A DNA stretch of 64,000 nucleotides from Eledone cirrhosa (taxonomy: Eukaryota), in assembly GCA_964016885.1 (NCBI GenBank), contig OZ024746.1:60822001-60886000 (forward strand), written 5' to 3'. The notes under the pieces are model-generated. The model was given only the letters and a program-made list of their open reading frames with translations. It did not search any database and was not told where the DNA came from. Numbering within the stretch: the stretch's first letter is position 1; each line of letters starts with the position of its first letter. Shown here one piece after another: positions 1 through 60,236 of this stretch. A program made the translations under genes and the position numbers.

Positions 1-1648
1 TAACTTCCAATCATTGCTATCATATGTTATGAAAGCTGGAACCCCCTGCCAGTTGACCCCCAACATCATTTAAAAGATTATACTGCAGGATGCTGAATGA
101 AGCCAACTACTACTACTACTACTCAATGGAGTGTGAACTGTTTGCATTGCAGCACTTGCTGTTTAATATTGAGGGAGAAAGCAAGGCTTGAACTGGTCTT
201 GCCAATACTGTCACAATGCTAGTCAGGATCCAATTGCTCCCACTGTCATTTTGTTAGGACACTTTTTATAAATTGATTTAGTTGTCACATGTATTTAATT
301 TAATGTCAATGCTTTCTAAAGAAAAGAGAAAATGACTTGGCAGCGCCTCTTAAAATTTGAACTAAGAAACTATATGAAAGCAAGAGAAAATGTATTAGAA
401 AAACACAATACTTGGAAACAAAATATTTTCCTTGGAATTTAAAAAGAGAAAAAAATATTGCAAATGTAATATCTAATGTTCTGTTATTGCATTGCATAAC
501 TTAGTTCTTGTGGTACTTATATTATTCCTGTATAATTACAATTATATGTGGAGGCACATCTACTTCTCTTTTCTGTATATGGTTCCCATACTGCATTTTT
601 TTTACACTCTGTATTCTTTTTATTTGACATCTATGCCAATTTATCTATATTACTATTACTAATTATTACCACAACTACTAGTGCTACTACTGCTATTTAA
701 AAAAAAAATTTGTTTACTATTCTTAGTTTAGTAAATGTGCGCGCTTTTAAGTTCTTGTTATGTTGTCAATCTGTAAGCTATTTTGTGTCTAAATAAGAAA
801 ACTTAAGAACGAAGTATGTGGAACATACATGCTAAAAACATTTTCTACTAATTTAAAGCTTAGAATTATTAGTAATACATATTTTTCTTTTTTACCCCCT
901 TCCTTTTTTCTGTCTGTCTCTTGAGTCAGTATAAAATAAATGCAGCAATACCATCCTGGCTACATTGTGCAGTATATCTACATTGACAAAGGATTGTTTA
1001 ACTGCTTAGGGATAGATAAGATTCTTTATTGTTTTTTTTTTATTTATTAAGTTCAAATCACAGCAACACTATTTATTGAATGTATGCAACTTCCAGTTAC
1101 AAATGATGCAAATTTTCCACTATTTTGAATAATTTTTTGATTTTTATTTGGTTAAAGCAGGGTAGATGGCTAGAACAGCATAGTGCCAGGTTGGATGCTT
1201 TAGTGTAATCAGTTTGGTACCTCACTGTTGTTCTAACTTTAAAATCCCTATTGGACTCAATTTTTTTTTCTTCATCCTTCAAGACCTTATCAATATACTG
1301 AGGTTAGTTAACTTTCTCCCTACAAAAAATTTGCCTGAATCCTGAATGATCTGATTCCATGATAGTTAACTTCCATGATAGACAATTGTAAGAGTTAATA
1401 AATTTTAATTTTAGTTATTTCAGTTTTGTTGGAGAATGAATACATATATATATTATATTAGTACTGAAATATTTCAACTTCTATATATAATTTCACCTGG
1501 CAAGCACTGTAATTAGTTTAACCTACGAAAACAAATTTGGTGGCAGGGGTGGGGCACTAAACTGTAACTATCACTTGATTTTCATGAGTCTATATGTAAT
1601 ATATGTTGACAAAAATAAATATCTAATGTCTATTATTCACTGTTTAAG

Positions 1649-1690
1649 GGTTAGTCCATCTCATGGTCCCAGCGGACTGAATGGAATATG
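1649..1690 (+). promoter_or_regulatory. Candidate poison/micro-exon in OGT intron (tandem acceptors at 1648 and 1654)
   Basis: CTAAT 1623-1627, AG-free run to AAG|GGTTAG|, donor ATG|GTAAGG at 1691; starts a GC-richer island. Confidence 0.5.
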
Positions 1691-2705
1691 GTAAGGGAGA
1701 CGTACTGGAACACTTGCGGGTAGCCAACTGCGCCTTGAGAACAGTAAATAGGGATGTGGTCCAGGGGCCAAGAATGCTAGAAGTCTCCAGTGTCATAGGT
1801 GTGACAACAAACCTATCAAGAGACGCTGATATTTTGACAGTTTGCCCTCTTTGGTCTGACGACCACTGAAGCCAAGCACACTAGGTTGTCGCTGGAAAAG
1901 GTGTTGCGACTTGTAGCATTCCAGATGAGGGTCTTACTGACATGGAATGGGAGGGTTCTCATGTCTGGGCTGCTAGCTGAAATTGAGGAGGGAAGCCCAT
2001 GGCATCCAGACCATGGTTTATGATCTTGTTAAGAGCTGCACTGTAATTAGTAGTTAGTTTACATTACACGTTTAATGCAATTTTTTTAAGAGTCTTTTTT
2101 CTTGCATATTAATTCAACAGTTGCTTTTTTTGCATTGGCAAGGCTTCATTGTCCAATACAGATTATAACCAGGTCTAGAATATATCCCCATCTCAAAGTG
2201 CAGGTGTGCAGCTAAATGGTCATAACTCCATCTAGTTTCACAACTGTTTTCTAAATTTATTATATTGAATGATTTTCATTTGATTTATATCTTAGGAGTT
2301 AATCAAACCTATATATGCAATTAGGTTTTTTCTTAAAGGTGAGAGCAGTATATAGTAAGGCTAGCTGCTTGCTTATGGGGTAAAGCATGTGGATGATTAC
2401 TTGGTAATGTAAATATGCCAGTATTCTACATATATTAGTATGGTTAAGTTATAATGAAGTCTTTACTAACAGAGGGATTCATAAAAGGCATTACTTATAT
2501 TTGTCCCTATAAAAAATTTGACAAATTTTATTGCTAATATGTAATTTTAAACTGGATGTTATCCATTGAATAAAATTTCTGTGAGTTGATTTTAATCAAT
2601 TTTCATATTTTTAAAAACTTGACTGCTGATTATTCACTGTTGTCAACATTCTGTACCACTGAACACTAATGATCGTCTTTTTTGATTTCTACACAAGCAA
2701 TGCAG

Positions 2706-2951
2706 GTGTGCTCACTGCTATCAAATAGTGTGCCCGCCTGGTCAGTCGGTCACTCGTGTCTCCTGGGTCAGTCACTAGCTGTGGGTCGGTCAGCGGTTGG
2801 TCTCATCTTCTACCTACTCCCGGCCCAGCCTGGCCAGGGCAGGCTGCTGCAGCAGCACCAGGACCAAAGGACAGACTCCTCCTAGTTGACTACTACTACT
2901 ACTACTACAGAGCTATGAATGAATACATTGGTATTAGTAGACATCTCTGAG
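2706..2951 (+). promoter_or_regulatory. Candidate poison/decoy exon in OGT intron
   Basis: CACTAAT 2664-2670, T-tract, AAG(2697) and CAG(2705) acceptors, in-frame TAG 2883-2885, cluster of weak donors 2931-2982. Confidence 0.55.
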
Positions 2952-3550
2952 GTGTGAGCTGAAGGTATTGTATACTTAAATGTGAGTCAATTTCAGTTGT
3001 AGTCCCTGGCTATTTCTCTCCTATTTCTGCAGTGTAATGACATCTCTTTTACTGATTCATGATGGTCAAGTGTGATTTGGGGCAGTTTGGATTGCAAATT
3101 TTTCACCACCTAATGATATATGTATATTTTCCTTTGGTTATAGTTTCTGCTGCTGGCTTCAAAATTATTTACTCTTCATTGTCATAAAGGACACAGCTTA
3201 TTTTGACTCAACCTTCAAAGTTGTTGATGGAAGTAATATTTGTTTTAATTTCAGTTATTTTAGATGATGAGAGCATTTAGTTCATATAACTCTTTAACAT
3301 TCTCTCGACTAATAAGCGATCTTATTCAATTAAAAAGAAATGTTAATTTAAGAACTGACAAGATTAATTAGTTTATCCTCCCCTCTCACTTTTACAAATG
3401 CTGGTGCTTGTCTGTTAAAAATAAACCCATTGCAAGATGTTAGAATTATAACAAAATCCAAAATATTGTGTATATGTGTGTAGTAAATATACATTTTTTA
3501 TTGCAAATATCAGGCATCTTTAGTTGGAACTATCTACTTGGCATTATTAT

Positions 3551-3922
3551 TGGCAGTGGATTGGCAGTATCGGTAGAGTCGGACCCCATGCTATGCAATG
3601 TAGAGTTACGGCCTTTTACGGTCTGAGTTCAAATTCTGCCGAGGTTAACTTTGCCGTTCATTCTTACGGGGTCGATAAAATAAAGTACCAGTAATACACT
3701 GGGATAATTGCTGGCTTTGTGCCAAAAGTAGAAACAATTATTATTGGCAGTATCGGTAGAGGGTCGGACGCCAAGCTTTGACGCATAGTTACGGCCCTTG
3801 CCATTCTGAGTTCAAATCCCACCGAGGTTAACTTTGCCTTTCATCCTTACGGGGTCGATAAAATAAAGTACCAGTAATGCACTGGGTAATTGCTGGCCTT
3901 GTGCCAAAAGTAGAAACAATTA
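3551..3922 (+). mobile_element. Tandem pair of tRNA-derived SINEs (Meta-domain-like)
   Basis: A box TGGCAGTATCGG, B box GAGTTCAAATCC, core GCCTTTCATCCTTACGGGGTCGATAAAATAAAGTACCAG; other copies near 13365, 24870, 34053, 35100, 40078(-), 44078, 48215, 55105, 55460(-), 61408(-), 61560. Confidence 0.85.
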
Positions 3923-6900
3923 TTGTAGCTGCATGTGCAGTTTCACTTCTTAGTATTGACATTTGAATGTTTTGATATTTGTTCAAAAACTTTGTTGGCA
4001 AAAGAATGTTTTTTTTATTATCACAAATGTTTCTTTGGCACACTCCAGTTTATTTGTTGACTCTGATAATCTTAATTTTAAAGAATGTATTTTGTCATGA
4101 GGTTAAGTGTAATTAATATATAATTATGCTCTGACCTCCCAAAATACATTGCAAATTTTGTAAAAATTATTTACTTAATTCTTAAATTATTTTAATGGAT
4201 TCTTTGTATTTTTTGTAATTTATTATTTTTTTTGTTTCTATGGAAAGTGTAAATTTTGTAACCTGAAAATCTAATTGATGTAGTTTGGAATTCTTTGATT
4301 ACAAATGGCTTTATTGGCAAGTACAGTTAACTAAAAATACATATTGAATTTAGTTCAACACTTTTCAGTTTGTGTTTTGATTTATATCTTTTTTTTTTAA
4401 TATTACTTGTGCTTTATGGAAGAAAAACTTTAAAATGCAATTTAGCACCTTAATATGATATATTAAAATGTTATTTTCTTGGTATATAATTATATTTTTC
4501 AGAAAGAATATATAATTTTTCTTTATGCATTTACTAACATAAGAACGGGATTAAGAATCTTCAAATGAAATTACATGGGCAAGAGAATTAGAACAATACT
4601 TCACTTTAGTTGAATGGATATTTATAATCCTTATTTCAATTTAGTGAATACTTACTATTATTTAAACATTCTCTATTCTGTCCGCTGAGGCTGCGAGGCA
4701 GTCAGTACGTGGGCCCCCATTTGCTCATAGTAGTGAGAAATAGGGAGAGCGGGAGGGATGGAGGCAGTGACAGTGGGAGTTTGGTTCCTTTGTGTTCAGA
4801 CTTATATTTTACACACATAATCTTGTTATTAAAGACAAGGTTAACAGTTTAATGGTTCTAGGTATTCAGGTGTTAAATTTTCAGTATAATTGTACATATT
4901 CTTTTTTGAGCTATAAAAAAGGGGAGCAACTATTCTCGTAGATTGCCTGAAGGAAAAATTGTTTTAAGAATGCAATACCTAGAGTAAAGTTTGAGTCTAA
5001 TTTAGGATACCTGCATCTTGAAGGCAGCCACCACTCCTTTAGTTAATTATGGTAAACTTAGAAACTATATATTTGCAACCATTATGTTTTTCTATTTTAT
5101 ATGTACATCTAAATTAATGCAGGAAACTGCAAAAAAATGAGAAGATAGTTTCAGTAGAAATGGTTCACATCTTGTGAACCATTGAATATTTTACATTCTG
5201 TTGTTTGTTTTCCATTGAATTCCTAGAACAGTTCACCATCCTCCTTGTTTATATCAGTAAACTGTGATGGACCATAGAAAGTTATTTATAATGCTAGTAA
5301 TGGCAAATAGACGTTTGAAAAGTCTTAGTTTGTTTTATTCAATTGTAAAATGTTCCTTGAACTTAAAAAAAAAGAAAATTATTACAAGTATGACAAGATA
5401 TTATACTATTTGTTTAGAATACTTAATTTCAAATTATTTTAAAACACCCATTCTATTGCTATAGAATTTTGATAATCTTTTGATTTAATATGAAATTGTT
5501 TTTCCAGTTTTTGGGGTTGCTCTGCAATATTGGTATTATGTTATGAGTGTTTGCTCAGGGAAATATTGAAAAATATTCAGTTCTATTAAAATAAAGCTCT
5601 TGTAAATTTGAAAATATGCTGTGTTGTATGGAATACACTTTCTTTATAAGATTTTGCTACACAAGTTAGATAATGAAATTTCTATATTCAAGTTTCTCAT
5701 GTCTTAAGTACACAATGGTTGTTTTATAAATTAATTGTTTTCTTTCCATTTTCATATTACAAAATTATACAGGAATATATAGTAAATTTTGTTGGTTTAA
5801 CGTCAAAGTGGTAATTTATAATTATATTTATTATATCTCTTTTTGCTGATAATATTGTTAGGTATTTCTGGTTGATTTCTTTAAATGGTGGTTTTGTTTT
5901 ATTTTCCCTCCTTCTGTTTCTTTCCATCCTGCTGTCCCATGTAACAGCTTTACCTCTTTATGCCATTATACTGCAGTTGAAAGGATATTGATATGCCCTA
6001 AAATACAAGAAAAATAGAAAACAAAAACACCAGCATCAAATAACTTAATTTGTATTATTAAAAGTGACTACTATAATACTGATTTTTTAAGGTTCTTTTC
6101 ATATTTTTTCATACAAGCTTTTTTTTATAAAGTCATTTTTCATAACATCACTAATTTCTACAAAATTATTGCTAATTTTTCAGAATAATTGTTTTTCTAT
6201 CTTTTTCATTTTTCTTCTATTAGATTTTTTTTTTACATTTTATTTCGTTTCTTTACAATTTTTTCTTTGTCGATTTCATTTTTATATTTCTATATCAATA
6301 TTTTTGTGTGTATGTATTTTATGCAGTTACTTTTTTATTCCCTTAGCGCGCGAAGCATTGCGCGGACGCACTTGGTCGCAGGCGAATAGAAACTTTTTTT
6401 TAGATGTCAGGTTTCTTCTCCTGTATTTTAAAGTTGCCTCATCAGGTCATGGATGACATGTTAAATCACTTGTGTGTCTTCGATTTATCCAATATTTCTC
6501 GGATGATAAATTTTAGCAGTATGAAATAGATAATTCACTTTGGACATATAGATGACACATTTAAAGTGTTGCATTTTAGAAAACTTTAAATAGTAGTTGT
6601 TGATGAAAGGACTGTTAATTTTCAACAATAAGACTAATATCTTGTTTTAGTTGAGAAAGGACTGTTCTTGAGCTAAAGTAAATACACTACTATAAAAAAG
6701 AGAACTTATCATTGGAATTTTAACTAGAAAAATTTGAAAATTTATAATTAGTCATGTGTGGTTACCAATGGGTTGAGGCAGCTTGTTGGAAGAAAAGTGA
6801 AACCTAATTATTTTATTTCACCAAGCAGAACAGCTTTCCTCTTCTATTATTACAGGAGAAGAGAAATGGCATCTTTTTGTTTTCCTTTTATATACATATA

Positions 6901-7438
6901 TATTTAATTCTATATATGTATGTATATAAAATGTGTGAATGTGTGTATGCATATATATATATATGTGTGTGTGTATGTATGCATATATATATATATATGA
7001 TTTTTGTTTTACTTTGGTGTTATCAGCACAAGTCATCACTAATGTATGGTTTATAGAATCAAAGTTTCTTTTTAGCAGCTAACATTTCAAATATATAACT
7101 TAAAAAGTTTTAGATTCATCTAAATTTGTATTTATCAATATTTAAATATTGCTTTTTTTTTAAATTCTTTTTTTTTCTCCAGCTAAATCTCAAAAATTAT
7201 ACTTTGGTTCAGATAAAATTGTTAGGTTGCCTAAGAAAACCTGGTTCTAAACTCCTATATGCATGGTTAGTGCTTAACACAGTATATTGCGCGCGTTTAG
7301 TTCATAGTGCAAAACTTCTACTGGAGCGCAGGCGACTTGAGCGCTTTGCTTTTGGATGTTCTTTTTTGACTTACTTTGTCATTTGCAAAAACTAATGCAT
7401 TTATTTTGTATATAACTGTAAATTTGCCTACACTTTAG

Positions 7439-28984
<21,546 letters not shown>

Positions 28985-41447: not shown

Positions 41448-60236
<18,789 letters not shown>

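Follow-up and report, generated by a model that had tools for sequence, protein, structure and literature searches.

Does the long intron of octopus OGT, at the point where vertebrate OGT is regulated by splicing, harbor a comparable switch? In the portions available of PMC5588854, PMC6097662, PMC7261177, PMC7373989 and PMC12017769, vertebrate OGT intron 4 is described as a detained intron with an intronic splicing silencer and a decoy, or poison, exon of 143-153 nt. The window, a stretch of 64,000 nt of Eledone cirrhosa DNA, begins within an intron whose 3' end adjoins an exon identified as OGT, while an exon further upstream (L009:5238-5480) was 100% identical to P0008, the OGT of Octopus sinensis.

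1-7438, + strand: last 7,438 nt of the OGT intron that separates K163 from A164, in the position of human OGT intron 4
7439-7555, + strand: OGT coding exon of 117 nt, residues 164-202; counterpart of human exon 5

Upstream, the intron extends beyond the window to L009:7054, directly after the 69-nt exon 4 (L009:6985-7053), for a full length of 10,385 nt. It is the longest of the 18 mapped introns of the gene, a ranking from which two unresolved introns are absent, and the other mapped introns measure 219-2,776 nt. The initial annotation had placed this intron at the position of vertebrate OGT intron 4, which was borne out: human exon 4 start, exon 5 end and the junction between them, located via primers NC1864, NC1860 and NC1773 from the supplement of PMC5588854, fall at the same codons. 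The acceptor at 7438 had also been considered weak. Its pyrimidine fraction of 0.65 lies within the range of 0.55-0.95 across 18 OGT acceptors, 7 of which are at or below 0.65, and it is therefore not distinctively weak. A branch-point-like motif is located about 44 nt upstream of it.

Six non-repeat islands had been described in the intron, two with full splice signals and in-frame stops, several of which were proposed to act as decoys. The islands at 2698-2990, about 1-360 and 7200-7438 are single-copy in the octopus genome, as judged by a search that passes over very common words and whose single-copy result is no proof of rarity; the region 5900-6500 matches elsewhere in the genome only through a T-rich stretch. 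The islands at 1649-2042 and 4680-4800 are dispersed repeats and were ruled out as decoys on that ground. Hence one of the two islands with full splice signals and stops (2698-2990) stands and the other is a repeat, and evidence for a decoy was obtained for 2698-2981 only. It was observed separately that neither repeat has an aligned piece in the relatives' contigs, which by itself proves nothing. The SINE pair noted previously was confirmed as a SINE-like tandem pair.

1649-2042, no strand assigned: dispersed repeat fragment outside the system, with at least 42 genome matches (40 of 1,084 candidates scored)
3560-3924, no strand assigned: tandem pair of a high-copy SINE-like repeat
4669-4801, no strand assigned: dispersed repeat fragment outside the system, with at least 41 genome matches (40 of 2,462 candidates scored)
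2698-2981, + strand: poison/decoy exon of 284 nt, from the exon 4-2698 junction in X17, contigs of X19 and X4, and Sepia gene models

The interval 2698-2981 is a conserved, stop-bearing internal exon used in splicing. A branch-point-like motif is present, the acceptors are at 2697 and 2705, and donor-like GT sites are found at 2931, 2952, 2965 and 2982. Two AG and four donor-like GT sites may thus compete, use being observed only for the ends 2698 and 2981. An in-frame stop occurs at 2776, or at 2883 when reading from the second acceptor. In an X17 contig, the loose end before 2695 corresponds to L009:7021-7050, the end of exon 4, which establishes an exon 4-2698 junction, and the same contig continues unspliced to 3374. 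An X19 contig branches at 2695. An X4 contig stops at 2981, immediately before the 2982 donor, and carries 30 further unplaced letters, implying use of this end. Moreover, both ends of the exon are used in the Sepia gene models CAE1308339.1 and CAE1308337.1, which match octopus 2698-2742 (15/15 aa) and 2964-2981 (6/6 aa). A stop-bearing cassette spliced to exon 4 is therefore observed directly, with its 2981 end used in the Sepia models and implied by X4.

Retention of the intron was likewise observed in otherwise spliced transcripts. In X19 contig 14, positions 7219-7438 run into exon 5, which is followed by further exons in spliced form, so that the 3' end of the intron is retained, and X17 contig 6 also keeps the intron; these demonstrate presence rather than level, since the RNA evidence consists of assembled contigs, the depth of which gives no retention level. 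The library type of X4, X17, X18 and X19 is a guess, and the contig comparison covered 6 of the 23 runs (X4, X11 and X17-X20). It should be noted that X4 has contigs over the next intron as well (7527-8148 and 9047-9744), and part of the intron coverage is therefore background.

Comparison with relatives' contigs, the copy-number search and helix prediction delineated the following blocks.

1-357, + strand: conserved single-copy block; 14 substitutions in 357 nt in X11
2600-3116, + strand: ultraconserved single-copy core around the decoy exon
3008-3092, + strand: 5' arm of predicted long-range helix H1, pairing with 5926-5997 and starting 26 nt after the decoy donor
5919-6457, + strand: conserved block, with X18 differing by 12 substitutions over 539 nt; includes the H1 3' arm, the 5' arm of a second predicted helix, H2, and a CpG/GCGC patch at 6345-6390
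6774-6874, + strand: conserved single-copy block with the H2 3' arm (6851-6874)
7219-7438, + strand: conserved intron 3' end with a GCGC patch (7287-7350), joined to exon 5 in X19 mRNA

Within the core, 2 (at most 3) substitutions were counted in 517 nt, together with three small deletions in relatives, against 22 substitutions in 491 nt of coding sequence (2/517 versus 22/491, Fisher p 1e-5, with the limits of the core picked after the data had been seen). Intronic conservation thus exceeds the coding level. Both ends of the decoy also match cuttlefish, and the exon is, in its sequence, conserved from octopus to cuttlefish. Furthermore, the predicted helices H1 and H2 (5' arm of the latter 6402-6425) link conserved blocks. 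The predicted energy of H1, -57.4 kcal/mol, is the best of 1,189 windows, the next best being -53.7; its shuffle z of -8.3 overstates its strength, the margin against real windows being about 3 kcal/mol. When 22 other introns were scanned for helices, each against 8 random controls, no consistent excess emerged.

Taken with the vertebrate precedent, these features suggest, with somewhat better than even confidence, that the decoy exon, spliced to exon 4 in the RNA of a relative, makes excision of the intron slower the higher the cellular O-GlcNAc, in the manner of human intron 4. Splicing factors on the two decoy acceptors and four donor-like sites would compete with the intron's own ends. Intron-containing transcripts would then be held in the nucleus, or the decoy exon would be included and lead to nonsense-mediated decay; at low O-GlcNAc, splicing of exon 4 to exon 5 would be favored and more enzyme produced. 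The predicted helices H1 and H2 may tune that choice by looping out some 3.2 kb of the stretch that runs from the decoy donor to exon 5.

Non-exonic sequence at the 163/164 site was found in 23 of 34 informative transcript-like contigs of other animals, which group with gastropods, a nemertean, chelicerates, crustaceans and hexapods. Seven of the 23 cannot be genomic DNA, as five carry frameshifting inserts and two are intermediates in which exon 4 is joined to an acceptor inside the intron; the remaining 16 hold a full or 5'-cut intron and could include DNA of intron-poor genes. The occurrence of retention or poison-exon forms at this OGT site across protostome lineages is accordingly supported. 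In 10 of 11 multi-intron genomic contigs, the intron at 163/164 is the longest seen; it is absent from L019 and L078, two long genomic contigs that group with chelicerates. In 27 of 35 introns, CpG is raised toward the 3' end, and GCGCG and CGCGC displayed no consistent per-intron enrichment (12/16 and 16/16). A cnidarian origin of contig L042 is unsupported, its closest named relative being XP_067948699.1 at 77%, which we take to be bryozoan, and all statements of breadth are therefore bilaterian. Since transcript-like contigs of numerous invertebrates retain or mis-splice exactly this intron, the sugar-sensing splicing switch of OGT probably predates vertebrates.

Outside cephalopods, no homologous sequence was detected. 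Between the octopus blocks and the introns of other animals, none was found by blastn, local alignment or shared 11/12-mers; octopus and 34 non-cephalopod invertebrate introns share 12 11-mers, against 10.6 expected, which is no excess over chance. In local alignment, the highest z, 5.3, came from a gappy match at the CpG patch, and the donor cluster gave a snail contig a z of 1.9; any likeness between donor clusters in snail and octopus is therefore no more than suggestive. One primer in the human intron shares 10 nt with window positions 7219-7228, a match that a rough estimate places within chance. For want of such homology, the decoys may share a common descent or may have originated repeatedly.

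The octopus intron resembles vertebrate OGT intron 4 in the junction and phase of exons 4 and 5, in an internal exon that carries a stop codon and at least two acceptors and donors (candidate sites, in octopus), in an ultraconserved intronic core, and in retained and poison-included forms, among them an exon 4-poison exon product. It differs in intron length (10.4 kb versus 3.3 kb), in decoy length (284 nt versus 143-153 nt) and in its predicted long-range helices, which the portions available for the vertebrate intron do not mention; there, conservation of the vertebrate element is reported to reach only jawless fish. The ultraconserved poison exons of SR-protein genes and the decoy exons of SF3B1, ARGLU1 and DDX39B (PMC6097662 and PMC7261177, in part) are similarly conserved stop-bearing cassettes in long retained introns of homeostatic genes. 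Unlike those genes, the octopus host encodes a glycosyltransferase, and feedback would therefore have to pass through a modified splicing factor instead of an RNA-binding protein made by the gene itself. In BRD2 and BRD3, paired conserved complementary regions that control poison exons form long-range intronic helices flanking a poison exon, in the excerpted text of PMC10789245, as the octopus helices are only predicted to do, and their independent evolution is a warning for any claim of OGT ancestry. Drosophila sxc/Ogt, with long-intron splicing cited in PMC5588854 and PMC11623933 and intron retention in PMC11765297, is another invertebrate OGT with suspected splicing control, for which the accessible parts of the former two give neither a decoy exon nor an intron position. 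The literature searched contained no invertebrate OGT decoy exon.

That regulated unproductive splicing is real but follows a different cue, such as tissue, temperature or splicing-factor level, or serves as a fixed damper of OGT output, is a rather unlikely reading. Every observation here displays unproductive isoforms and none the signal; against this, the sole control known at this intron is O-GlcNAc (PMC5588854 and PMC7261177, as far as their available text extends), and in flies a drop in OGT activity is followed by a rise in OGT protein, according to the consulted part of PMC11623933. Considerably less probable is an in-frame cassette, in which exons of 43 nt (2698-2740) and 17 nt (2965-2981) would together insert 20 residues, including four cysteines, at a boundary between TPR exons and yield a variant protein instead of a poison. 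Exactly this insert is present in two Sepia models, a good donor begins at 2741, and a 13-residue in-frame insert occurs at the same site in two Steinernema species. However, the internal acceptor at 2964 is without a pyrimidine tract, contigs of X17, X18 and X19 are unbroken across 2741-2964, the whole 517 nt is conserved, and the insert occurs in 0/11 octopus models and 0/5 cuttlefish-cluster Logan proteins (4 of the 16 sequences begin beyond the site). Gene predictors, moreover, often invent an intron to dodge stops. Marginally less probable still, the conserved blocks could be enhancers, an internal promoter or non-coding RNA, with intron coverage from nascent RNA or DNA; the X4 coverage of the neighboring intron, several database OGT models that start inside this intron and the raised CpG near 3' ends fit this, but the exon 4-2698 junction, the Sepia exon ends and the seven contigs with non-genomic inserts would be left unexplained, and Rfam returned only two microsatellite matches, both below the gathering score.

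Regarding history, the feedback may instead have arisen separately in each lineage, an old, long and slowly spliced intron having repeatedly gained cryptic exons that were then selected. This account, which shares its mechanism with the O-GlcNAc feedback favored here and differs only in history, is somewhat unlikely, though it deserves the most weight of the alternatives. Poison inserts range from 74 to 284 nt, and no shared sequence is detectable between phyla; yet the events fall at one of about 20 introns in every sampled lineage, for which a single ancestral role is simpler, and short elements would be unalignable over such times anyway. On the favored reading, the regulatory role of the intron is probably ancestral to bilaterians, the decoy sequence having turned over or diverged beyond recognition. 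In the portion of PMC5588854 available, Drosophila OGT is stated to be without an ISS-like element, which counts against the favored O-GlcNAc feedback. We put forward only tentatively, at rather less than even confidence, that one OGT intron has been an O-GlcNAc rheostat since the bilaterian ancestor, detained or poisoned in octopus, snails, ribbon worms, mites, crustaceans, insects and vertebrates alike, with a decoy sequence that turns over within a lasting grammar made up of splice-site clusters, long-range RNA helices and, ahead of the branch point, a CpG/GCGC patch.

If true, a rheostat with such a shared grammar would constitute a natural mutagenesis panel for the mechanism by which splicing senses O-GlcNAc. 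The finding also accounts for unusual OGT models in databases, which begin at this intron or carry extra residues there. A functional equivalent in molluscs and arthropods would date a metabolite-sensing splicing loop before the protostome-deuterostome split, would be a candidate cause of the rise in fly OGT protein upon loss of activity, and would open the mechanism to invertebrate genetics.

The window, positions 60,822,001-60,886,000 of sequence C6 in a host genome of 3.0 Gb, holds most of one OGT gene. The OGT protein of Octopus sinensis (P0008) was placed exon by exon from L009, the contig carrying the upstream stretch of the gene, to window position 28,981, with 100% identity at the upstream exon L009:5238-5480. 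The intron between K163 and A164 (hereafter 163/164) extends from the donor at L009:7054 to the acceptor at window position 7438, a length of 10,385 nt of which the window has the 3′ part; the 17 remaining introns that were mapped measure 219-2,776 nt. The initial annotation had located it at the position of vertebrate OGT intron 4, and this is borne out by primers for the human gene listed in the supplement to PMC5588854: exon 4 begins, exon 5 ends and the spliced junction falls at the same codons as in octopus, so that the positional claim is based on a source. The supposedly weak pyrimidine tract at 7438 was not recovered, its pyrimidine content being ordinary among the mapped acceptors of octopus OGT.

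Within this positional counterpart of intron 4 there is a real, conserved poison (decoy) exon at window 2698-2981. Its junction with exon 4 is observed directly in a contig of sequencing run X17, aligned from 2695 and preceded by 391 non-matching letters, the last 30 of which are the end of exon 4 (L009:7021-7050); three letters common to both sides complete the junction at acceptor 2697/2698. Beyond it the contig is unspliced past the decoy donors, reaching 3374. At the same place a contig of run X19 breaks with a 30-letter overlap, as branching at the exon 4-2698 junction would give. The second decoy junction is observed indirectly, in a contig of the window's own species (run X4) that ends at 2981, immediately 5′ of a consensus donor, and has a further 30 letters, not displayed, that were not placed. 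When the exon is read through, all eight pairings of acceptor and donor contain a stop, located at 2776 or, with the second acceptor, at 2883. Independently of these contigs, exons 4 and 5 are separated by an insert of 20 residues in two OGT models of the cuttlefish Sepia pharaonis, residues 1-15 matching translated window 2698-2742 and residues 15-20 matching translated 2964-2981; therefore both ends of the decoy exon are conserved between octopus and cuttlefish, which diverged about 270 million years ago. Such an insert raises the rival, kept here, of an in-frame isoform instead of a poison exon. Against it, the internal acceptor that it requires is without a pyrimidine tract and the contigs of relatives cross the cut unbroken, for which reasons the internal cut of the Sepia models is read as a probable annotation device.

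Six GC-rich islands of the intron had been described as non-repeat, which holds for four located in single-copy sequence, while two proved to be dispersed repeats. The repeats, and the blocks aligning to contigs of relatives (organisms coded C, D and E and one invertebrate metatranscriptome; 6 of the 23 listed runs), are as follows.

Window 1649-2042: dispersed repeat (genome copy search)
Window 4669-4801: dispersed repeat (genome copy search)
Window 1-357: block aligning to relatives
Window 530-1111: block aligning to relatives, poorly
Window 2475-3374: block aligning to relatives
Window 5919-6457: block aligning to relatives
Window 6774-6933: block aligning to relatives
Window 7219-7553: block aligning to relatives

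The core around the decoy exon (2600-3116) differs from relatives by substitutions at 2748 and 3016 only, together with three small deletions; the aligned piece of the DNA run has 22 differences, of which 21 are listed, so that the core holds at most one further difference. Over three OGT coding exons, 22 of 491 nt differ (X19), and the comparison of core with coding substitutions gives p = 1e-5, an optimistic value because the core limits were chosen after inspection of the data. The single-copy block at 1-357, which continues upstream in L009, differs at 14 of 357 nt in a relative; no junction was seen in it, and it is possibly a second regulatory element. A 63-nt part of the decoy exon (2740-2802) has 6 copies of GGTC, against 20 in 7,438 nt, and similar repeats are located at the 3′ end of the 163/164 intron in contigs L087 and L088. 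Elsewhere, a near-perfect inverted repeat at 41785-42193 (arms of 183 nt, 99% complementary) is probably a small DNA transposon.

Retained forms of the octopus intron are present. In contig 14 of X19 (3,895 nt), window 7219-7438 runs on into exon 5, after which the downstream exons are spliced, and contigs of X4 and X18 pass from the intron into exon 5 and end at 7466, the overlap expected where spliced and retained forms meet. X4 contigs additionally cover parts of the next intron. Since contig depth is no measure of retention level, the library types are guessed and X4 covers the next intron, retention is claimed as presence and is not established as high. Two RNA helices are predicted between conserved blocks. 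In one, the stretch just 3′ of the decoy donor (3008-3092) pairs best with the start of the 5919 block (5926-5997), reciprocally among about 1,000 windows each, with a modest margin; the substituted position 3016 lies in an unpaired loop. The other (6402-6425 with 6851-6874) is the strongest ungapped helix of the intron, with a score of 39, the highest of 6 controls being 35.5. Acceptor- and donor-like sites (6403-6416, 5947 and 6856), among them a 7-nt AG...GT stretch (6404-6410), lie within the predicted arms, with no use seen.

The same junction was sought in metagenome contigs, where 639 stretches matched in 60 of 64 parts scanned and 559 were confirmed. Among the best 80 of these, there are 39 in which the frame stays open from A164 for 170 residues or more. 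Three long contigs of genomic DNA (L019, L055, L078) were left out, as were two (L043, L062) with at most 4 nt upstream; of the remaining 34, 11 are spliced at 163/164 and 23 are not. Near-duplicates (L042/L046, L029/L030) mean that the 23 are not independent events. Seven of the 23 contain a whole GT-AG intron and nine start inside it. The 11 spliced contigs have no interruption elsewhere. In L029 and L036, as in X17, exon 4 is joined to an internal acceptor with the remaining intron kept, and L028, L033, L040, L048 and L063 carry a frameshifting non-intron insert of 74-230 nt; for these seven a genomic origin is excluded. The L063 insert ends in a match to the genomic intron of a relative, just before a GT, and L015 and L054 encode identical downstream protein, the intron being absent in the former and present in the latter. 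By tree and best hit, L036 comes out as the sister of Elysia (support 1.0), L028 falls with Tubulanus (0.95), L063 and L074 fall with chelicerates and L077 with hemipterans, L054 and L071 lie close to Daphnia (92% and 90%), and L050 branches as the sister of vertebrates (0.99). Parallel events at 163/164 occur across bilaterians. The octopus conserved blocks show no resemblance beyond chance to non-cephalopod 163/164 introns.

Among 11 genomic contigs with both ends of this intron and another intron, it is the longest in 10. In 27 of 35 introns CpG is higher over the final 300 nt, and near the 3′ end of the intron L074, L081 and L083 contain a 13-bp long-range helix with both arms conserved; in L055 a comparable place is taken by a different complementary pair. 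These contigs are chelicerate-like, and the L074 arms are at intron positions 862-874/1217-1229. Among the 35 non-redundant introns, without a control set, 12 have AAG as their last letters, and in many a branch-point-like motif lies 60-100 nt upstream. Steinernema models P0172, P0264 and P0262 have insertions at 163/164 that keep the frame, of 13 and 75 residues. Ten further short OGT models, about 830-850 aa long and from insects where a name is given (P0161, P0164, P0167, P0173, P0174, P0176, P0192, P0193, P0196, P0210), share a similar alternative N-terminus without the exon-5 region, which suggests a conserved internal first exon.

In the accessible literature, outside subscription papers, no description of a decoy exon in an invertebrate OGT gene was found, and searches on cephalopods and Daphnia gave no paper. 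Passages of PMC5588854 describe the element as conserved only among vertebrates and jawless fish, with Drosophila lacking it; those of PMC11765297 report intron retention in fly sxc without naming the intron, and term searches of PMC7719714 and PMC12864184 gave nothing further. By analogy with passages on the human system (PMC5588854, PMC6097662, PMC7373989, PMC7261177, PMC12017769, PMC12894984), decoy splice sites would compete with the intron's own ends, high O-GlcNAc would lead to nuclear retention or NMD, and low O-GlcNAc would favor productive OGT splicing. With its position, exon, conservation and retained forms, the octopus intron resembles the vertebrate intron 4 system in every feature testable from sequence and contigs; the O-GlcNAc response, nuclear detention and homology with the vertebrate element are candidate features. 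O-GlcNAc feedback through this intron is moderately likely. The intron at 163/164 is not universal, because L019 and L078, long genomic contigs of the chelicerate clade, encode an OGT that has lost it, and these would represent natural knock-outs of the proposed switch.
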